From: an uncultured Desulfobacteraceae bacterium
Lineage (GTDB): Bacteria > Desulfobacterota > Desulfobacteria > Desulfobacterales > UBA5616
Reading direction: 5' to 3'
DNA length: 64,000 nt
Assembly: GCA_964386565.1 (NCBI GenBank)
Contig: CAYLRU010000005.1
Span: forward strand, 79,068-143,067
Shown: positions 9,843 through 62,620 of the stretch, piece after piece
Position numbering within the stretch: the stretch's first letter is position 1
Layout: each line of letters starts with the position of its first letter
Position numbers and translations under genes: made by a program
The notes under the pieces: model-generated
Told to the model about the DNA's origin: nothing
Seen by the model: the letters and a program-made list of their open reading frames with translations, nothing else
Databases searched by the model: none

Positions 9843-10508
9843 TTATTTTTTGATTAATTGCAAAATAAGCCATTCGATCTCCCCGGCCACATCGATGGAA
9901 AGATGCTTACTGTATTTTTTCAAGAACGCATCAGATACCAGGTTGCTTTTAGGTGCATTCAGCGCTCCCCACAGAACCAGGGCCCCGGCAATCATCATAT
10001 GCAGCATGAACGGGTTAACCGGTTTAAAATCACCTGTTTTCACACCCTCCTCAATAATATCCAGGAAAATTTCGATAAATTTTGAAAAATTTTCCTTATA
10101 CCCTTCCGTGATATTTTCTCCGCCCGAAGCAAATTCCCAAAAAAATATCATGTTGTCCTTCAGGCTCTTACCCCCCTCCGGCACCCATGACTTTATATAT
10201 CGTCTGAGTTTTTCCTCGGGTGATTTCCCGGCTGTGCCGACCTGGATCAATTCCTCGATATGTTTATTTAAGGATCTGGCAATCACCTCTGAATAAATTT
10301 CCTTTTTATCGCCGATGTAATAATATACCGAGGCTCTGTCCACTTTCGCTCTTCTGGCGATTTCTTCGATGTTTGCATTTTTAAATCCGGTTTCCGCAAA
10401 AACCGCCCTTGCCGCGCGGAGGATTTTTTCGATGGTTTCCTCCCGTTTTTTTACAATACTTTCTGAATTCCTCATTTTTGGTCCTGCATGAATTGTATTT
10501 ATATCCAT
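9843..10508 (-). CDS. TetR/AcrR family transcriptional regulator
   Basis: N-terminal HTH (ILRAARAVFAETGFKNANIEEIARRAKVDRASVYYYIGDKKEIY). The more likely start is the ATG at 10475 (MRNSES). Confidence 0.85.
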   Translation of the reverse strand: MDINTIHAGPKMRNSESIVKKREETIEKILRAARAVFAETGFKNANIEEIARRAKVDRASVYYYIGDKKEIYSEVIARSLNKHIEELIQVGTAGKSPEEKLRRYIKSWVPEGGKSLKDNMIFFWEFASGGENITEGYKENFSKFIEIFLDIIEEGVKTGDFKPVNPFMLHMMIAGALVLWGALNAPKSNLVSDAFLKKYSKHLSIDVAGEIEWLILQLIKK

Positions 10509-37720: not shown

Positions 37721-38260
37721 TTATTTTTTGTTACAGGTTATGTGAAAGCTCTTCATATCGATCTGCTGATATTTCACTTGTTTCAGCGTATTGAGATTAA
37801 CGGCATTAAAAAGATCCGAATTTTCCAGCCGGATCATGAAGTCAGCGACGGTCTTGTTGTCAAGGGCGATTCCCGTAATGATCACGTTTGGCCCCTTGAA
37901 TGAAAAATCCGTAAACCACATCCGATTCGGCACAACCAGGCCCGTCATGGCATCAAGAAGCCTCACCGGTTCCGTCCGATTGGCTTCAAGATCCTTGATC
38001 ACCCGTATTTTCTTCTTTAATACCGCTATCTTATCTTTTATGGTCTGAATTTCCTTGTTGATCTTGGCATATTTTTCAATTTCATTTTTTGTGTGACGGA
38101 TCTGTTCATTCAGCGTATCAATTTTTTTTGCCAAGATGCTTTGGACAAAAAACAACGCAAGAACAATCAACACCAGGGAAAGAAAGAAAACGGATATTTG
38201 TCGCCTGATGTTCTCTTTTTTACGCGCTGCACGAAAGGGCAGAAGATTTATTCGTATCAT
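37721..38260 (-). CDS. pilN: type IV pilus assembly protein PilN
   Basis: MIRINLLPFR N-terminus (the PilM-binding motif) and one TM helix. ATGA overlap with the pilM stop. Confidence 0.87.
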   Translation of the reverse strand: MIRINLLPFRAARKKENIRRQISVFFLSLVLIVLALFFVQSILAKKIDTLNEQIRHTKNEIEKYAKINKEIQTIKDKIAVLKKKIRVIKDLEANRTEPVRLLDAMTGLVVPNRMWFTDFSFKGPNVIITGIALDNKTVADFMIRLENSDLFNAVNLNTLKQVKYQQIDMKSFHITCNKK

Positions 38261-39312
38261 TTGTCATCAACTTTTCTGAGTGCAAGGCCCATGCAAATTG
38301 CCGCCTGGGGTGCGATTGCTTTTATGTAAGAGGCTTGAAACTTGTCAATATCGACATCAATACTGGCAAAGGGATTAATCGGCTCCACTTCCGCAAACGT
38401 CTCTTCGGCGAGTAACTGGCGGAACTCCTTAATGTTTGCGCCTCCCCCGCTCAATATGATCTTCTTGATTTGATCATCAGGATACGTTGAATAGAAAAAA
38501 TCAAGGGCCCGCCGGATTTCATTACACCAGTCCGCGACCACGGATGATACAATCCCCTGGAGATGTTCCGGGGTCAGCTTGTCCCCGGGGTTATTGAGTT
38601 TTACCTGTTCGGCCTCTTCAATGGAGCAATTGATCATCGAAGCGATCTCCTGATTAATCTGGCCGCACCCCAGGGATACATCGCGCATGAACACCGAGGT
38701 GTTCTCCTTTAGAATGTTCAGCGATGTCTTGCTGGCGCCGATATCGATGAGGGCGACATTTTCACCGCCCGACCCGTAACTCAGTTCGTAAATGTTCTGG
38801 AGGGCAAAGGCATCGATATCGATAATGCAGGGGTTGAGGTTGGCCAACTGGATCAGGTTGATATAATTGTTAACCATTTCCTTTTTGGCCGCAACAAGAA
38901 TAACATTCATCTGGTTGGGATTTCCTTCCGCCTCACCCAGAATCTGAAAATCGATGTTCACATCGCTGATGTCAAAGGGGATATACTGCTCCGCTTCAAA
39001 ATGAATGGTCTCCTGAAGCTGGTCTTCCGACATGGTCTGAACGTTGATCTTTTTAACAATAACCGAGTACCCGCCGATGGAAACCGCGACATTCTGTTCT
39101 TTGATGTTATATGCCTTAAACAACTGGCGGATTACATTTGCCACCTGTACCGGATCAGTAATATTTCCTTCTTCGATCAGGCCCGGCGAGAGTTCAACCA
39201 TCCCGAATCTGGCCAAGCTCATCCCTTTTTTCGTCTCGAGGATTTCGCCTGCCTTTATCGATTTTGAGCCGATATCAAGTCCGACGAGAGTGTTTTTTTT
39301 ACCAAATAACAT
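38257..39312 (-). CDS. pilM: type IV pilus assembly ATPase-like protein PilM
   Basis: Actin/FtsA-like fold (VGLDIGSKSIK ... LIDIGASKT ... ILSGGGANI). Confidence 0.92.
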   Translation of the reverse strand: MLFGKKNTLVGLDIGSKSIKAGEILETKKGMSLARFGMVELSPGLIEEGNITDPVQVANVIRQLFKAYNIKEQNVAVSIGGYSVIVKKINVQTMSEDQLQETIHFEAEQYIPFDISDVNIDFQILGEAEGNPNQMNVILVAAKKEMVNNYINLIQLANLNPCIIDIDAFALQNIYELSYGSGGENVALIDIGASKTSLNILKENTSVFMRDVSLGCGQINQEIASMINCSIEEAEQVKLNNPGDKLTPEHLQGIVSSVVADWCNEIRRALDFFYSTYPDDQIKKIILSGGGANIKEFRQLLAEETFAEVEPINPFASIDVDIDKFQASYIKAIAPQAAICMGLALRKVDDK

Positions 39313-39321
39313 AATAAGCTC

Positions 39322-39519
39322 TTAATGGTTAAAAATTTTATTTTTGTCAGATAACTTCATTCCAAGAGCCAGAAGAATCTTTCTTTTGGTTTCCATTCGA
39401 CATGGTTTGCCGTCTTCAATCCGTGCTATGGTAAGGGGAGAAATATGTGCCTTTCTGGCGAGTTCCGCCTTACTCAACATAAGGGATTCCCTTATTTCTT
39501 TTAAGGCATTTTTTTTCAT
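39322..39519 (-). CDS. small XRE-family helix-turn-helix protein, first gene of the pilM operon
   Basis: LSKAELARKAHISPLTIARIEDG HTH. Stop lies 9 nt before the pilM start. Confidence 0.75.
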   Translation of the reverse strand: MKKNALKEIRESLMLSKAELARKAHISPLTIARIEDGKPCRMETKRKILLALGMKLSDKNKIFNH

Positions 39520-39542
39520 CGGAGGGAAAAGCTTTCTATTTA

Positions 39543-39568
39543 TTGCATATGATTATCATAAAATGCAA
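39543..39568. promoter_or_regulatory. inverted repeat TTGCAT-N14-ATGCAA enclosing ATGAT-T-ATCAT; candidate operator upstream of the XRE-pilM operon
   Basis: Arms at 39543-39548 and 39563-39568, with an inner palindrome at 39549-39559. Lies 24-49 nt upstream of the XRE start codon. Confidence 0.4.
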
Positions 39569-39634
39569 GAAGAAAAAAAAACAGCCGGAATATTTCGCAG
39601 TATCTTCTTTTGAGAATGAATTGTCAACATTTTT

Positions 39635-39658
39635 TATATAATTATGCATAATTATATA
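39635..39658. promoter_or_regulatory. perfect 24-bp AT-rich palindrome in the divergent pilM / kinase intergenic region
   Basis: TATATAATTATG|CATAATTATATA is its own reverse complement. Confidence 0.4.
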
Positions 39659-39875
39659 TATATTGTATTAACAAAAAGCCATGCGTCCATATGTGGTGTA
39701 AAAAGCCTGAAAAATTCACCATTCCGGCTTTCAGGACCGCCCGAAAAATACCAGAAGAATGAAATCCGGCTGATTTTGTCACCACTCAAAAAATTCCCGG
39801 CTTATAAAGGGGCGCCGGCAAAATCTTTTTGTATTTATTGACTTTAAACCGTCTTTCTTTTAATTATCTGAATTC

Positions 39876-41291
39876 ATGAAACAAGTCGCGATAGAGGAAA
39901 AAACAAAACCTTTCAGGCTGGTAAAGTATTTTACACTGTCCAGTCTTGTCGTTATTTTCTTCGGCATACTCGTGTTGTCCGTCTTGAACACGCATTTGGC
40001 AAGAAAACTGCAGCAGGAAAAAAGCGAGGCATATGCCCGCGTTCTGATTGAAAATTTAAATCACCAGATATTTCTGCAGTTCGTTATCCCCGTGGCCATT
40101 CAATTCGGCAAAATCCAACTCCGGAATCCCGAACAGTTCGAACGAATGGATAAGGTTGTCAGAAGCACATTTCATAGTTTCGACGTGGAGATGGTGAACA
40201 TCTACGACCTGGAAAACACGGTTTCGTACAGTTTTAATAAAGACATCATCGGAAAGGAAAATATCGGCGGAACCGGTTTTCAAAACGCTCTTGACGGCCG
40301 GATGACATCAAAAATCGTACAAAGGGGAAATTTTCTGGAAATATTGTTCGGATTCCCCAAGGAAAGCCGGATGCTGACCTTTGCACCGTTAAGGGCTGAA
40401 AAACCGCTCTCAACACTTTCAGGCCCCATACTGGGCGTCGTGGAGATCGTTCAGGATCTGTCCGAGGATTACCAATCTATTTTCAGATTCCAGATCCTTG
40501 TGTTTTCCACCATTTCATTTGTAATGGTTTCTATTTTCATTGTGATGCTGCTGATCGTCAGAAGAGGGGAAAGCATCATACGGCAAAGGGCCCTGGAGAG
40601 ACTAAAGCTGGAAGAAAAATTAAACCGCGCCAAGCATCTTTCATCCCTGGGCGAAATGACAGCCGGCATTTCCCACGAGATCAGAAACCCCCTCGGCATC
40701 ATTAAAAGTTCCGCGGAACTATTGAAAAAAAAGATGAGCGGTTTTGACGCCGCCAATAAAATACCGGATATCATCATCGAGGAATCCAGCAGGCTGAATA
40801 ATATTATTACGGATTTTTTAAATTACGCCAGGCCCAAATCGCCTTCCCATGCCGACTGCCGGATAGCCGATATTCTTGAAAAAAACATCACATATCTCAA
40901 GCCGCAAATCGAAGAAAAAGGTTATGTTATCAAAACATATATCACAGATGCACTGCCCCCGCTGTCTGCCGACGCAGACATGCTGCACCAGGCGTTTTTA
41001 AATATTCTTCTAAATGCAATGCAGGCCATGCCCGACGGCGGTGAAATCCAGATTGAAGTCAATTCAACAGACCATTCCGTTATCATCGTTTTTGAAGACG
41101 AGGGGCCCGGAATCGCTCCGGAAAACATCGATAAAATCTGGAATCCTTTCTTTACCACAAAAGAAACAGGGACCGGGCTGGGTCTGGGCATTGTAAAAAA
41201 CATCATCGAATCACACGGCGGCACCATCGATATCCGTAACAACACCCCTTTGCGGGGTGTCAGCGTCAGGATTGAATTACCGGTGAATTAA
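39876..41291 (+). CDS. sensor histidine kinase (2 TM, periplasmic sensor domain, HisKA, HATPase), tentatively PilS/AtoS-like
   Basis: H-box ISHEIRNPLGI and N/G boxes (LLNAMQAM, DEGPGI, GTGLGLGI). Divergent from the pil operon. Confidence 0.85.
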   Translation: MKQVAIEEKTKPFRLVKYFTLSSLVVIFFGILVLSVLNTHLARKLQQEKSEAYARVLIENLNHQIFLQFVIPVAIQFGKIQLRNPEQFERMDKVVRSTFHSFDVEMVNIYDLENTVSYSFNKDIIGKENIGGTGFQNALDGRMTSKIVQRGNFLEILFGFPKESRMLTFAPLRAEKPLSTLSGPILGVVEIVQDLSEDYQSIFRFQILVFSTISFVMVSIFIVMLLIVRRGESIIRQRALERLKLEEKLNRAKHLSSLGEMTAGISHEIRNPLGIIKSSAELLKKKMSGFDAANKIPDIIIEESSRLNNIITDFLNYARPKSPSHADCRIADILEKNITYLKPQIEEKGYVIKTYITDALPPLSADADMLHQAFLNILLNAMQAMPDGGEIQIEVNSTDHSVIIVFEDEGPGIAPENIDKIWNPFFTTKETGTGLGLGIVKNIIESHGGTIDIRNNTPLRGVSVRIELPVN

Positions 41292-41302
41292 GGAGTATTC
41301 CC

Positions 41303-42694
41303 ATGGAAACCATCTTAATCGTGGATGATGAAAAAAATTATCCGCCGATCTTAAGCGCCGTTTTAGAAGATGAGGGCTATGAAACGCTGACCGCCAATTC
41401 CGGCCGGGAAGCCCTTCTCATATTAAATGACTCCGACATCGACCTTGTTCTTACCGACATGAAAATGCCCGGCATGGACGGCATCGAGCTGCTTGAAAAA
41501 ATCAAATCCTGTGATCCTGACTTGCCGGTGATCATGATGACGGCGCACGGTACCGTGGACAAGGCGGTCGAGGCAATGCAGAAAGGGGCTTATACCTATA
41601 TTCTTAAACCGTTTGACAATGACCGGCTGGTTCTTTTCGTTGAAAAGGCAATTGCCATGTTCCGTGTGATAAAGGAAAACAGAAGGCTTCGGGATGCTGT
41701 TGAATCCCAGTACAAGTTCGGCAATATCATCGGCAAGACAAAAGTGATGAAAAGCATCTTTGAAACCATTCAAAAAGTTGCTCCCACGCCGGCAACGGTA
41801 TTAATTGAAGGTGAAAGCGGAACGGGAAAAGAGCTTGTTGCCAAATCCATTCATTTTAACAGCCCCCGCCATGACAAGCCGTTTATCCCGGTTAACTGCT
41901 CGGCTTTTGTCGAGACCCTTCTGGAAAGCGAACTTTTCGGCCACGAAAAAGGAGCCTTTACCGGGGCTGTTTCCATGAAAAAGGGACGTTTCGAACTGGC
42001 TGACGGCGGCACCCTCTTTTTGGATGAAATCGGTGAATTGTCCCCGAACCTGCAGGTAAAGCTCCTCCGGGTACTCCAGGAAAAAAGCGTTGAGCGGGTC
42101 GGCGGCATAAAGCCCATATCCGTTAATATCCGCCTGATTTCGGCGACCAACAAAACGCTGGAGGATGAAATCAGCCACGGCAGGTTCAGGGAGGACCTGT
42201 ATTATCGATTAAATGTTGTACGAATCGTCATTCCCCCTTTAAGGGATCGCAAGGAGGATATTCGTCTGCTGGTAAATCATTTTATAAAAAAATATGCAGA
42301 AGAGCGAAAATCCGATATTCCCATAAAAGGAGTGGACCATGAAGTCGAGCGTCTCTTTTACGATTATCCCTGGCCGGGAAACATCCGGGAACTTGAAAAC
42401 ATCATCGAGCGGGCCATGATATTATGTCCCGGAGAGTTAATTACCCCTGCTGATTTGCCCAACGAGTTTAAAAGCAGCATCGACAACACGCTCCGGCTGG
42501 ACGGCATTCCGGTGAATGCAAATCTTTATGAGACAATGGCCAAGGTGGAACAGGAGATGATCATCAGGGCGCTGAAAGTCACCAACAACGTTCAATCCCA
42601 TGCCGCCCGGTTGCTGGGTATCGGAAAAAGCGGCCTCAATCAAAAGATTAAAAAATACAACCTGGATATAACCGCCGAGACGGACAAGCGATAA
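41303..42694 (+). CDS. sigma-54-dependent response regulator (REC-AAA+-Fis HTH), tentatively PilR/AtoC-like
   Basis: Receiver D (LVLTDMKMPGMDG), Walker A GESGTGKE, intact GAFTGA (HEKGAFTGA), C-terminal Fis-type HTH. Confidence 0.9.
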   Translation: METILIVDDEKNYPPILSAVLEDEGYETLTANSGREALLILNDSDIDLVLTDMKMPGMDGIELLEKIKSCDPDLPVIMMTAHGTVDKAVEAMQKGAYTYILKPFDNDRLVLFVEKAIAMFRVIKENRRLRDAVESQYKFGNIIGKTKVMKSIFETIQKVAPTPATVLIEGESGTGKELVAKSIHFNSPRHDKPFIPVNCSAFVETLLESELFGHEKGAFTGAVSMKKGRFELADGGTLFLDEIGELSPNLQVKLLRVLQEKSVERVGGIKPISVNIRLISATNKTLEDEISHGRFREDLYYRLNVVRIVIPPLRDRKEDIRLLVNHFIKKYAEERKSDIPIKGVDHEVERLFYDYPWPGNIRELENIIERAMILCPGELITPADLPNEFKSSIDNTLRLDGIPVNANLYETMAKVEQEMIIRALKVTNNVQSHAARLLGIGKSGLNQKIKKYNLDITAETDKR

Positions 42695-59015: not shown

Positions 59016-59447
59016 TCATAAAATCTCGATTCCGTCACCGACCCGGATGACGCCGCCCTTAACGACCCGTGCAAACACCCCTTTGCGGGGCATGATGCAG
59101 TCTCCGGCCTGATGGTAGACAGCGCACTTGTTATGGCAGGTCTTGCCGATCTGTGTAATCTCCATAACCGCTGAATCACCGAGTCTCACCCGTGTACCCA
59201 CCGGCAATCGTTCCCAGGTGATCCCCGAAGTAGCGATGTTTTCCGCAAAATCGCCATAACTGACGTCAAGTCCCTGAACACGACGCACATGGTCGATGTT
59301 TTCAGCCGACAGAAAACTGACCTGGCGGTGCCACGGCCCGGCATGGGCGTCATTTTCCAGCCCATGGTCTTTCTTTGCACGGGCTTTGCTGATTTGAAAT
59401 TTCCGCGTTCCTTTTTTTTTGCTGATACTGATGGATACGATTTTCAT
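59016..59447 (-). CDS. MOSC domain protein
   Basis: Small MOSC beta-barrel pattern (GLENDAHAG..HRQVSFL...GDFAENI...CHNKCAVYHQAGDCIMP). ATGA overlap with the upstream gene. Confidence 0.78.
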   Translation of the reverse strand: MKIVSISISKKKGTRKFQISKARAKKDHGLENDAHAGPWHRQVSFLSAENIDHVRRVQGLDVSYGDFAENIATSGITWERLPVGTRVRLGDSAVMEITQIGKTCHNKCAVYHQAGDCIMPRKGVFARVVKGGVIRVGDGIEIL

Positions 59448-59836
59448 GGTGCCTTTATTTGTTTCAGGATATCCCGAAAGACGTCACATGACTTGCAAAT
59501 TTCGATTTTCTCCTGCCAGTTCCGGCGAGGCGATCCGTCACAAATGGTCCCGTTAATGAACCAGCAATATTTTCCGGCTTTAAATTCCCATGCCGGACAT
59601 TTCTCTTTTTTTGCTGAATCGCAACCCAACAGGTTCCAGCAATATTCCTGTTTTTCCATGTCCACCAATGCCATTGCCATCAAAAAATAAACCTGCCGTT
59701 CCACATCCATTGGAATGACCCGCCAGCCCTGCTCGTAACTGTGAATCGCCTTGATGGACTTGCCCAGAAGCTGGGCCATTTCCTTTTGTGTTTTGCCCAG
59801 TTTTTTCCGAAAATATGAAAATTCCTGTTTTTTCAT
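59444..59836 (-). CDS. XRE-type HTH regulator fused to a Cys-rich domain with two CW motifs
   Basis: HTH (KTQKEMAQLLGKSIKAIHSYEQG), then YCWNLLGCDSAKKEKCPAWEFKAGKYCWFINGTICDG...ICKSCDVF with 7 Cys. Confidence 0.7.
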   Translation of the reverse strand: MKKQEFSYFRKKLGKTQKEMAQLLGKSIKAIHSYEQGWRVIPMDVERQVYFLMAMALVDMEKQEYCWNLLGCDSAKKEKCPAWEFKAGKYCWFINGTICDGSPRRNWQEKIEICKSCDVFRDILKQIKAP

Positions 59837-59925: not shown

Positions 59926-60315
59926 TCAGGGCTTTTTACAACTGGCCAGGGCAAGATAAAATGCACCAACGGCCAATTCCGCGCAATGGGTTTCATGGGC
60001 AGGCAGGGTTTGAAGGTATTCGACCACGGTCTCCGGCGTGATTTCCCATGCCGCGTCAACGGCCTTTCCCTCACATAAAAAGGCGACGGTGTTTGCGCAG
60101 GCATTGGTGCTCAGACAGCCGTCCGTTGTAAATGAAACCGATTTGATACGATTCTCGTCAATGGTCAAAAAAAATTCGACAGAGTCCCCGCACTCGCCGG
60201 TTTTTTTGCCATAACCATTCGGATTTTCAATGCTTTCATGGTAATCCGATCTGAGGGCCATTTCAAGATACGACAATGCGTGGTCCTGCCAAAAGTTAAA
60301 CGGTTCATCTGTCAT
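59926..60315 (-). CDS. NifU/IscU N-terminal-domain-like Fe-S cluster scaffold protein
   Basis: GECGDSVEFFL...TDGCLSTNAC...THCAELA carries the three conserved scaffold cysteines. Confidence 0.82.
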   Translation of the reverse strand: MTDEPFNFWQDHALSYLEMALRSDYHESIENPNGYGKKTGECGDSVEFFLTIDENRIKSVSFTTDGCLSTNACANTVAFLCEGKAVDAAWEITPETVVEYLQTLPAHETHCAELAVGAFYLALASCKKP

Positions 60316-60415
60316 GCCAGGTTCTCCATTCCGACAATTAAATGGTTCTTTATTTTAAAAATCGGTGCCTACTGAATAATTTCATAAAATTCAACGAGAA
60401 AAACAGGCCTCCCCC

Positions 60416-60453
60416 AAAAAAAAACGGTTAACCGGCCAAAGGCCGGTTAACCG
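60416..60453 (-). terminator. strong orphan rho-independent terminator
   Basis: Perfect 13-bp stem CGGTTAACCGGCC / GGCCGGTTAACCG (60425-60437 / 60441-60453) with a 3-nt loop. On the minus strand it is followed by nine T (60416-60424). No annotated CDS ends within 540 nt upstream. Confidence 0.8.
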
Positions 60454-60493
60454 TGGAGAGGAGAAAAAAGATGAAGAAATATTTTGGTTTCGC
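60416..60493 (-). ncRNA. candidate ~78-nt sigma-54-dependent small RNA with a CU-rich anti-Shine-Dalgarno region
   Basis: Predicted start about 12 nt downstream of the -12 GC. About 40 nt are unstructured (...CUUCAUCUUUUUUCUCCUCUCCA), then the 13-bp terminator hairpin and U9. There is no plausible ORF. Confidence 0.4.
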
Positions 60494-60500
60494 TTTTTTA

Positions 60501-60520
60501 TAATGCAAGTTCGTTGCCAA
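60501..60520 (-). promoter_or_regulatory. sigma-54 (-24/-12) promoter candidate
   Basis: The minus strand reads TTGGCAACGAACTTGCATTA. GG (60518-60517) and GC (60506-60505) are separated by exactly 10 nt. Matches TGGCAC-N5-TTGCW at 10 of 11 positions. Confidence 0.55.
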
Positions 60521-60994
60521 CTGAAAAATTATTTCCAAAAAAACTCATGGTCATTATTATTTATTTATTATTCAATAGGTTATAATTTCACCAATCATAA
60601 ACCAAGTCTGTTTTAAAGGGTATGGTGATATTTAAAAATGCATCTTTTGTTTAATATTTTGAACCGAAAAATCCCGGAGTTACAGGAACCTGCTGTATTT
60701 ATTCATTTTATTTGCCATTATAAAAAGTTCAAGATTTTGAACCCAATCAGAATGATCTGATGTGACAAGCTGCCTGTCAATAAAAAAACATCTGTCAATT
60801 CTGTTTGCCTGTCGATAAAAATAAACATGGGCATCAGCCAGACTAAGCTATTTTACGTATAATTCAAAATACTTATAACATAAATAATCCAAAGAAACGT
60901 CCGGGAAACAATCCGATGCCGGCTGTATGGGCAATGCCGGACAGACGGTTTAAAAAAATAAACCCGGCATATCCCCTGCGCTGTTCCGTGGTGG

Positions 60995-62620
60995 TCAAAC
61001 CCTGCACCCCTTCATCCGGATGGTCCCCAGGCCGCGAAGAAAGCCTCTGGTCAATTTCTGCGATATCCGGTGCTCATAAATCTCCCCCTCCGGGGTCACC
61101 CCGCGTATTTTTCCATCTTCCAAAAACCATGCGAGCAGCCTCAACCCCGTATCTTCACGGCCTTTCCGGACGAACTCCTCCTTTTTAAACACCGCCGGGC
61201 CCGGTATTTCTTTCCCTTCATCGATCAACCGTTTCATGAAATTTAAAATCCGCGTCAACCGCAACAGGGTAACGGCTTCGATCCGCCGTGTCGTATGGGA
61301 TATGGGCAGGGCGCAGGACCGCATTAAAGAAAAGTCTCCGGGCAGAATGCCCCGTTTCCGGCAGTCTTCAAAATCCCTGCTGCCGGGAGCGGGATAGTAG
61401 ATGGAAAGGCCTGCCAAAACCCTTTGCCCCGAGAGAAATAACAGGTCCTGCAGAGATTCGCCGGCTGTCTGGTGCGGAGCGCCGGCAATAATATAGCCCA
61501 CCGCATCCAGCCCGTATTCTTGTGCCCACGCCAGGGCTTTCTGAAAATCCCGTGTGACATCGGGCCTGGTAAATCGTTCCAGTTGTTTTTTCCGTGTGGA
61601 GCATAAAGAAAGATTAAGCGCGGAAAACCCGGCATCTTTCATTGCAGCGACCACGGTTTCATCAAGTGATGGCGGGAACAGGCCGTTCATGGCCCGGAGT
61701 TCCATATTCAGCGATTTAAACTGAATCGTTATCTCCTTTAAAAGAGAGAGGAACCAGGCCTTATCCATGGACAGGTTTTCATCTTCAAAGTCCACGAATC
61801 CGACGTCTCCCCGCATCGTCGCATTTCCGATTTCCCGTATCACGGCGTCAACGGACTTTTTCCGGTATGGAAATACGGATGATGCACCCACACAGCAGTA
61901 AGAACACCGCATGGGACATCCCCGTCCCGTAATAACCACAATGCTCCGCCTGTTTTTTCGATTATAAAAGGAGTGGTTTATAAGATGATCGGCAGGCAGG
62001 GGGAAATCATCCAATCGATCCATAAAAACCGGGCGGCCGATATGAAATTGACCGGGTCCGGTTTTATATCCGAGCCCCGGAAGACCTCTCACGGAAGCAT
62101 GGTTTTTTATCGCTTCTGCCAGAAGCGGCATGGTGACCTCCCCTTCGCCCCGGATGATATAATCCACGGCGTCACACTTCAACACATCTTCCGGGCAATA
62201 CGTGGGATGATGGCCGCCTATGACCACACGGCAACCGGGATTTGCCTTTTTTGCAATCCCGGCCGTTTCAAGCGCTTCATTGCTATAGGCCGTAAACAGG
62301 GATGAAATCCCCACCAGGAATGCCCCGGACGCCTTCACCCGGTTCCCGATGTATTCATAGCTGTATCCGTAATGGCGAAAGTGGTGAAACAGGGCAAAAG
62401 GTGAGATGTCCTCCTTTCCATAGAACGGATCCAGATAGGCCATTTTCATGGGCTTTTGAAGGATACGCGATTTTGAGGTGGCCAGGGCGTCAAGGATCTC
62501 CACGTCAAATCCCCGTTCAATCAGGGCCCCGGCAATGCAGGCCAGTCCGTAGGGGATGGTTCGCTTCGCGGTAAGATAAAAATCCCTGATGGGGGGTTGT
62601 ATCAGGAGAATATCGGCCAC
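60995..62620 (-). CDS. B12-binding-domain radical SAM protein (class B)
   Basis: N-terminal cobalamin-binding-like Rossmann domain (ILLIQPP...GLACIAGAL...GFDVEILD), then GRGCPMRCSYCC (CxxxCxxC). Confidence 0.82.
   Translation of the reverse strand: MADILLIQPPIRDFYLTAKRTIPYGLACIAGALIERGFDVEILDALATSKSRILQKPMKMAYLDPFYGKEDISPFALFHHFRHYGYSYEYIGNRVKASGAFLVGISSLFTAYSNEALETAGIAKKANPGCRVVIGGHHPTYCPEDVLKCDAVDYIIRGEGEVTMPLLAEAIKNHASVRGLPGLGYKTGPGQFHIGRPVFMDRLDDFPLPADHLINHSFYNRKNRRSIVVITGRGCPMRCSYCCVGASSVFPYRKKSVDAVIREIGNATMRGDVGFVDFEDENLSMDKAWFLSLLKEITIQFKSLNMELRAMNGLFPPSLDETVVAAMKDAGFSALNLSLCSTRKKQLERFTRPDVTRDFQKALAWAQEYGLDAVGYIIAGAPHQTAGESLQDLLFLSGQRVLAGLSIYYPAPGSRDFEDCRKRGILPGDFSLMRSCALPISHTTRRIEAVTLLRLTRILNFMKRLIDEGKEIPGPAVFKKEEFVRKGREDTGLRLLAWFLEDGKIRGVTPEGEIYEHRISQKLTRGFLRGLGTIRMKGCRV

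Follow-up and report, generated by a model that had tools for sequence, protein, structure and literature searches.

In a 64,000-nucleotide (nt) stretch of contig CAYLRU010000005.1 from an uncultured Desulfobacteraceae bacterium (hereafter the window), we analysed an intergenic element on the minus strand that had been proposed, in a first reading of the window, to be a σ54-dependent small RNA (sRNA) (hereafter the original prediction). We consider it likely that the element is a self-contained regulatory sRNA gene of ~78 nt (minus strand, 60493-60416), which would be driven by an enhancer-binding protein (EBP) together with σ54, would act in trans and would represent a family in the order Desulfobacterales. 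It is housed in an A/T-rich gap of 680 bp between the stop codon of a B12-binding radical-SAM gene (60995) and the start codon of a nifU-like gene (60315), with the former coding sequence ~540 nt upstream of the sRNA locus and the latter ~100 nt downstream. The predicted transcript begins at G 60493, 12 nt past the C of the -12 element, and its hairpin (60454-60424) contains 13 G/C-rich pairs, or 14 pairs with A60454-U60424 included. The CU-rich tract in the window extends to 60455 as CUCCUCUCC, and no start codon is present between +1 and the hairpin on the minus strand. The sequence and the fold prediction therefore bear out the architecture as originally described, namely a start near 60493, ~40 nt of unstructured pyrimidine-rich RNA, a 13-bp GC-rich hairpin with U9, a transcript of ~78 nt, the absence of a credible open reading frame (ORF) between promoter and terminator, and the distances to both neighbouring genes.

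To collect family members, we gathered 80 genomic loci that encode relatives of the nifU-like protein (57-69% identity) and examined the 700 nt preceding each of these genes. The sRNA unit was found in five of them (L006, L072, L018, L044 and L048), 60-110 nt before the nifU-like gene, in the order TTGGCA-N6-TTGC, ~11 nt, a conserved pyrimidine-rich stretch, a hairpin of differing sequence and a U-rich run. A covariance model (R1) was built from the six aligned sequences (the window and these five). When the window and the 80 loci were searched with R1, only the six known copies were recovered, and a seventh, L087, was added from metagenome contigs; the six copies other than the window's score 52-99 bits. 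Six of the seven copies were found via the nifU-like gene and L087 via the DNA pattern. Among the matches listed from a metagenome scan with the 22-nt core, L087 and L183 (= L044) were the sole true members; most of the others were unrelated contigs, since on the opposite strand the core reads as a generic ribosome-binding site (RBS) followed by an MKK start. The sRNA is not present at the further NifU-like homologues P0008, P0011, P0039, P0048 and P0056, and P0007 is L006. The window locus is identical in three Logan assemblies (SRR15988951, SRR15988952 and SRR15988955), which represent the same strain and are uninformative.

The family members fall into group A (window, L006, L072), group B (L018, L044, L048) and L087. 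In group A, the 5' region is identical at 39 of 39 nt, while the adjacent NifU-like proteins of L006 and L072 are 66-67% identical to that of the window and the spacer to nifU is ~61% identical. The 5' end of group B differs except for the core UUCAUCUUUUUUYUCCUC, which is invariant in all seven sequences. In the terminator stem, compensatory changes occur at 7 of the 14 pairs and 91.6% of the cells are paired across the seven sequences. None of 500 shuffles gave as high a covariation score, and sliding the 3' stem partner by 1-3 columns reduced pairing to 20-48%. Every member is predicted to fold into an unstructured 5' region and one terminator hairpin. Thus, the promoter and the hairpin recur in seven genomes or contigs and the hairpin covaries, which answers two of the checks that the original prediction had put forward, conservation in relatives and covariation of homologous regions.

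The copies occupy two synteny contexts. Group A has PilZ and B12/radical-SAM genes upstream, and group B has NUDIX and DUF3783 genes upstream and a convergent aconitase gene downstream. We also observed that the wider neighbourhood in group B (positions 80-8500 of L211, an extended L018 contig) and in L087 abounds in stress and redox genes, namely those for Lon, two HSP20 proteins, a rubrerythrin/ferritin-like protein, NUDIX, PilZ, aconitase and RsbRD_N. PilZ and MFS genes flank the window copy of the sRNA as well.

A search of the whole window against Rfam 15 at gathering thresholds, a further check named in the original prediction, gave no match, and a permissive scan of 60250-61050 (E up to 10) yielded nothing credible. 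The best sub-threshold match in that interval, to the ylbH leader at 60419-60498 on the plus strand, opposite the sRNA (24 bits against a gathering threshold of 50, E = 0.007), is driven by the hairpin and was rejected as spurious.

The same core can be read on the plus strand as the RBS and start of a tiny ORF (GGAGAGGAGAAAAAAG-ATG-AAG-AAA, encoding MKKYFGFAFL* at 60470-60502), with the minus-strand features being either incidental or an antisense partner as in type I toxin-antitoxin systems. The reverse complement of the core, GAGGAGAAAAAAGATGAAGAAA, is indeed a textbook Shine-Dalgarno (SD) sequence with a 7-nt spacer and ATG AAR AAA, the 22-mer is also a gene start in many of the unrelated metagenome contigs among the matches listed, and L087 and group B are set apart by a single indel, of 3 nt. 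However, the encoded peptides are mostly 7-11 amino acids (aa) long and have only MKK in common (MKKYFGFAFL*, MKKYFGFAVSL*, MKKLSGAIK* and MKKLGYP*, translated by eye), and the ORF in L006 is longer and continues into the promoter region. The 39 identical nt show no synonymous variation although the neighbouring protein is only 66% identical. In addition, a plus-strand ORF leaves the GG-N10-GC motif, the positioned palindromes and the covarying minus-strand hairpin with its U-run unexplained, and on the plus strand the hairpin comes before the RBS and is not followed by a T-run. We regard the plus-strand ORF as highly improbable. An ORF on the sRNA strand was rejected too: group A has no start codon, and the AUG of group B overlaps or precedes the predicted +1 and its frame is lost in L087.

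σ54 promoter and upstream palindromes

Of the 11 positions of TGGCAC-N5-TTGCW, the candidate promoter in the window fits 10, and its GG and GC are spaced 10 nt apart, as had been noted at 60520. The accompanying estimate that such a match would arise by chance ~0.1 times proved about tenfold too optimistic. Shuffling of the 64-kb window gave 1.99 expected matches with at most one mismatch, and a Markov simulation gave 0.97 expected matches at 10 or more of 11 positions with GG/GC intact, with at least one such match in 63% of random windows. Since about one to two matches per window are expected by chance, the promoter call is unsupported on the window alone. The significance of the predicted promoter stems from its conservation in other genomes and not from the window match by itself: TTGGCA and TTGC are invariant and at a fixed distance to the transcript in all six sequences of the alignment and likewise in L087, giving seven of seven loci. 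Sequence conservation then sets in at about the predicted +1 of the sRNA. The host organism very probably uses σ54, because its genome encodes a σ54 activator, a REC-Sigma54_activat-HTH_8 protein with a GAFTGA motif, at 41303-42694 of the window.

Upstream of all seven promoters, we found two to three copies of an enhancer-like palindrome (upstream activating sequence, UAS) whose consensus, GTTCAAAATTTTGAAC, is a perfect 16-bp palindrome. The UAS centres are located at -138 and -216 relative to the -24 GG, with an additional one at -292 in group B, and these positions hold within ±2 bp. The copy at -216 ± 2 is present in seven of seven loci, and one centred between -137 and -140 with at most four mismatches is present in five of seven. 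Neighbouring copies are spaced by 76-78 bp (78 bp between the window sites). Only two sites in the 64-kb window match the consensus with three or fewer mismatches, both upstream of the sRNA, and all 10 matches with two or fewer mismatches in 1.09 Mb of other fetched DNA lie upstream of an sRNA copy. Inverted repeats arranged in tandem at this spacing, 140-300 bp ahead of a -24/-12 promoter, form a classic EBP-site arrangement. We therefore consider these palindromes candidate EBP sites, to which a cognate activator would bind. As an independent layer of conservation, the positioned palindromes make the assignment of the predicted promoter to σ54 convincing. An IHF-like site also lies at about -80, at the same position and on the same strand in the window, in L006 (AATCAAATAGTTA) and in L072 (AATCAATAGGTTG), which is weak evidence, and no IHF-like site was found in the group B loci. 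The features of the locus are collected in Table 1.

Table 1 Predicted features of the sRNA locus and its downstream neighbour, in window coordinates
Feature	Position	Strand	Remarks
Distal enhancer-like palindrome (UAS) GTTCAAGATTTTGAAC	60727..60742	.	1 mismatch to GTTCAAAATTTTGAAC; centre -216 from -24 GG
Proximal enhancer-like palindrome (UAS) GTTTAATATTTTGAAC	60649..60664	.	2 mismatches to consensus; centre -138 from -24 GG
IHF-like site ATTCAATAGGTTA	60570..60582	+	1 mismatch to WATCAA-N4-TTR; between UAS and promoter; weak evidence
σ54-type promoter TTGGCAACGAACTTGCA	60504..60520	-	-24 GG 60518-60517; -12 GC 60506-60505
Predicted small RNA, ~77-78 nt	60416..60493	-	+1 G 60493 to end of U-run; covariance model R1 = 95 bits
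Single-stranded 5' region GCGAAACCAAAAUAUUUCUUCAUCUUUUUUCUCCUCUCC	60455..60493	-	Predicted unpaired; pyrimidine-rich
Rho-independent terminator	60416..60454	-	14-bp stem 60454-60441/60437-60424, UUU loop, U9 60424-60416
nifU-like (NifU_N) gene	59926..60315	-	Downstream neighbour in 6/7 loci; context, outside RNA

The GAFTGA protein belongs to a PilS/PilR-like pair in the window (38257-42694), which comprises pilM on the minus strand, a histidine kinase (39876-41291) and the response regulator (41303-42694). As a candidate for the cognate activator, this PilR-like EBP was probably not the right one, as it adjoins the histidine kinase and pilM and is located 19 kb from the sRNA. In none of the seven loci is a Sigma54_activat gene found within ±3 kb of the sRNA, and no match to GTTCAAAATTTTGAAC was found in the searchable literature. 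We also noticed a σ70-like match (TTGACA, 17 nt, GATCAT) at 60752-60800 on the minus strand of the window, which overlaps the palindrome TTGACAGGCAGCTTGTCA. Two more TTGACAG/TCGACAGG copies are present just upstream of the distal UAS; by eye, these elements are not conserved in L006 or L072.

Relation to the nifU-like gene

The sRNA precedes a nifU-like gene in six of the seven loci, and the recurrence of this arrangement in two contexts suggests that the linkage is real, though it is partly an ascertainment effect. One may therefore ask whether the element serves the nifU-like operon chiefly in cis, as a leader or attenuator. The σ54 promoter would then belong to the operon, the hairpin would be a regulated premature terminator and the short RNA a by-product. 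Such a leader would fit the placement of the unit, 60-110 nt before the nifU-like gene and on the same strand in six of seven loci and both synteny contexts. We saw no convincing conserved promoter between the terminator and nifU, and other nifU-like genes of the Desulfobacterales carry a σ54 promoter directly at -60. The interrupted U-tracts of group B also point in this direction.

The comparison of L087 with L211 bears on this alternative. The two contigs are syntenic, with the order DUF3783, sRNA and convergent aconitase, and the flanking genes are 70-77% identical at the DNA level (L087 2333-2940 against L211 9400-10480). The nifU-like gene, which stands between the sRNA and the aconitase gene in L211, is absent from L087, whereas the palindromes, promoter, RNA and terminator are all kept and the next gene is the convergent aconitase. 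Because L087 retains the RNA without the nifU-like gene, the sRNA would be able to stand alone and would not be only a leader. Several other observations also argue against the leader. We searched for a conserved antiterminator pairing and found none, and the GGGGGAGG that comes after the window's U-run lacks conservation. No conserved alternative pairing of any kind emerged: the 5' region is predicted to be unstructured in all members, and there was no match to a riboswitch family. The window terminator, with 14 pairs and U9, predicts efficient termination, and the 5' region is conserved far more than the spacer to nifU. The pairing of the RNA with the nifU start region differs from locus to locus. 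We consider a predominantly leader function unlikely, and after this comparison the reading of the element as a self-contained sRNA gene, predicted from these sequences, is well supported. The original prediction had left the choice between a stand-alone sRNA and an attenuating leader to be decided, and L087 speaks against a pure leader. Part of the transcription may read through into the nifU-like operon, above all in group B, and this would not be required for the function of the element.

In six other Desulfobacterales nifU-like loci (L023, at ~2822-2859 and 2943-2958, and likewise L039, L042, L061, L063 and L065), we observed a σ54-type promoter of the form TGGCA(T/C)GTWATATGCT ~60 nt before the start codon. 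These loci contain a long A/T palindrome of another kind (TTAGAATTTTTTCGAA...TTCGAAAAATTCTAA-like) 120-180 nt upstream. From these motifs, nifU-like genes in the Desulfobacterales appear to be commonly controlled by σ54 via another activator. Right after the nifU-like gene of the window lies a gene for a 130-aa protein (59444-59836, minus strand), which has an N-terminal HTH_3 domain and a cysteine-rich C-terminus (CWNLLGC...CPAW...C...C...CKSC). This gene overlaps the start of a MOSC-domain gene and is conserved at the corresponding position in L006 and L213. The HTH_3/cysteine-rich protein may be an Fe-S-sensing regulator.

Pairing core and predicted mode of action

The invariant core contains the complements of both a start codon (CAU, 60473-60471) and an SD sequence (CUCCUC, 60463-60458), so that the earlier proposal of a CU tract complementary to ribosome-binding sites holds and extends to the start codon. 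In the mechanism that we propose, an EBP encoded elsewhere would respond to a signal by activating the sRNA gene. The sRNA would act in trans, with the core UUCAUCUUUUUUYUCCUC pairing with the SD, spacer and AUG of target mRNAs, and this pairing would block ribosome binding. The complementarity would favour targets that combine a strong GGAGG and an A-rich spacer with AUG-AAR-AAA as the start. Together with the 3' U-tail, the internal U-stretch that adjoins the terminator may also form a binding module for a chaperone of the Hfq type. From the content of the core, an anti-SD mode of action of the sRNA is plausible.

A number of observations weigh against this picture of a trans-acting, σ54-driven sRNA. 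The unit is known here from sequence alone and from only seven genomes or contigs, all of them uncultured. Its promoter match in the window, taken by itself, is at chance level, and the strength of its linkage to nifU is biased by the retrieval of six of the seven copies through the nifU-like gene. The U-tracts of group B are interrupted, and termination may be leaky there. A motif search within the 64-kb window found neither rpoN nor hfq. The sole EBP of the window is the PilR-like protein 19 kb away, and no EBP was found in L211 from ~10 kb upstream to 5.6 kb downstream of the nifU-like gene. The target search with the CU-rich seed that the original prediction had recommended came out negative: when the window and every sRNA-bearing locus were scanned for duplexes, no match surpassed those of shuffled queries. 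Self-matches aside, the best duplex (10121-10180) falls within a 221-aa coding sequence that looks TetR-like by eye, and the pairing of the sRNA with nifU-like start regions is inconsistent between loci. Apart from the sRNA locus itself, the window likewise holds no exact complement of 12 nt or more. Because the search covered only ~64 kb of this genome, the absence of targets is weak negative evidence.

The lack of a specific target in the scanned loci is also what one would expect if the RNA were a protein-binding or decoy RNA, whose pyrimidine tract titrates S1, Hfq or another protein or competes globally with ribosomes. The tract resembles the anti-SD of 16S rRNA (CCUCCUU in group B), and with 18 nt in the whole family and 39 nt in group A, conservation extends beyond the usual seed length. 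Moreover, the complement of the core is generic and not gene-specific. However, known protein-sponge RNAs carry many repeated motifs and only one tract is present here, the searched ~64 kb make the target argument weak, and a single-stranded 5' end followed by a terminator is the architecture of a base-pairing sRNA. We hold the decoy to be rather improbable and retain the base-pairing sRNA as the preferred explanation.

A more specific version of the base-pairing sRNA can be drawn from its gene neighbourhood. The RNA is coupled to the gene of a nifU-like Fe-S scaffold and, in one subgroup, lies near genes for aconitase, a rubrerythrin-like protein, HSP20 and Lon. It could then be a stress- or Fe-S-linked riboregulator with a RyhB-like function, which would work via σ54 and a dedicated EBP and silence mRNAs by a near-complete anti-SD/anti-start mimic. 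The silenced mRNAs might be, for example, those for MKK-initiated exported proteins or Fe-S proteins, and a single σ54 promoter might give rise to the sRNA and, when transcription reads through, to the scaffold protein as well. This version is speculative, and we suspect that it is not correct in its particulars.

Comparison with known systems

The Desulfobacterales are abundant sulfate reducers of marine and sediment habitats and are largely uncultured, and to our knowledge very few regulatory RNAs are known in this order. Here, the whole regulatory module, predicted to consist of enhancer sites, a σ54 promoter, an sRNA and a terminator, is legible from the DNA and is backed by covariation and positional conservation. 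The analysis provides a covariance model for annotation, a 16-bp operator that may lead to the cognate EBP and its signal, and a defined seed sequence with which targets can be sought. This is an incremental advance, and no concept is changed by it.

The closest known parallel is found in Desulfovibrio vulgaris, where four noncoding RNAs (ncRNAs) were predicted or shown to be targets of dedicated EBPs with σ54, and where the ncRNA appears to be the main or only target of these EBPs (PMC4641369, PMC3333781). Like the window family, the ncRNAs of D. vulgaris Hildenborough (the targets of DVU0653, DVU0679, DVU1419 and DVU2359) belong to a sulfate-reducing host of the former Deltaproteobacteria and have a -24/-12 promoter with upstream palindromic activator sites. 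In contrast, at least those of DVU0653 and DVU0679 adjoin the activator gene, whereas the window family has no adjacent EBP. The operators also differ: the supplementary text on the D. vulgaris regulons shows neither TTCAAAAT nor its complement at any site linked to an ncRNA (e.g., TGTCCGC-N-ATCGCGGACA for DVU0653), and ATTTTGAA occurs there twice, both times at DVU1949 sites. The window family belongs to another order, the Desulfobacterales, and is linked to a nifU-like gene; its distinction from the D. vulgaris ncRNAs is drawn from operators and gene context. It adds to the indication from Desulfovibrio that sulfate reducers often route σ54 signalling through small RNAs.

Another parallel is provided by the Qrr sRNAs of Vibrio, which act in trans and pair at the ribosome-binding sites of mRNAs. 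The Qrr family (RF00378) has, as predicted for the window RNA, a σ54 promoter with a dedicated EBP, LuxO in that case (PMC10162802), and both have a Rho-independent terminator and a long, perfectly conserved single-stranded region. Qrr has four stem-loops and the window RNA a single hairpin, the UAS bears no relation to the LuxO site, and the hosts belong to different phyla. The 64-kb window contains a single sRNA copy, which gave no Rfam match to Qrr even with E up to 10.

With respect to the predicted mode of action, the window RNA resembles RsaE/RoxS of the Firmicutes and AbcR1/2 and NfeR1 of the Rhizobiales (PMC10746234 for NfeR1), which likewise expose a pyrimidine-rich anti-SD motif, with RBS occlusion on several mRNAs as the proposed mechanism. 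Those RNAs carry their seeds in hairpin loops or in several copies, while the window RNA has one linear tract, which extends over the spacer and the start codon as well. Their promoters are of other types, and they have no sequence or Rfam relation to the window RNA. With respect to the predicted control, an EBP and σ54 govern a small RNA that in turn exerts post-transcriptional control in the cases of GlmY/GlmZ (GlrR; PMC3045617), CrcZ/CrcY (CbrB; PMC5113210), Pxr of Myxococcus (PMC5568312) and an RpoN-dependent sRNA of Campylobacter (PMC11187230). The sequences and structures of these RNAs are unrelated to the window RNA and none was detected by Rfam; in contrast to the action proposed for the window RNA, GlmY and CrcZ serve as protein decoys with repeated motifs.

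The original prediction had stated that σ54-driven sRNAs are known from other bacteria and had known of no such case at this type of locus. The family and its locus do appear to be undescribed, although sRNAs of this kind had already been reported in sulfate reducers. In summary, from the comparison with these systems, the sRNA family appears to be new while the type of regulator that it represents is already known.

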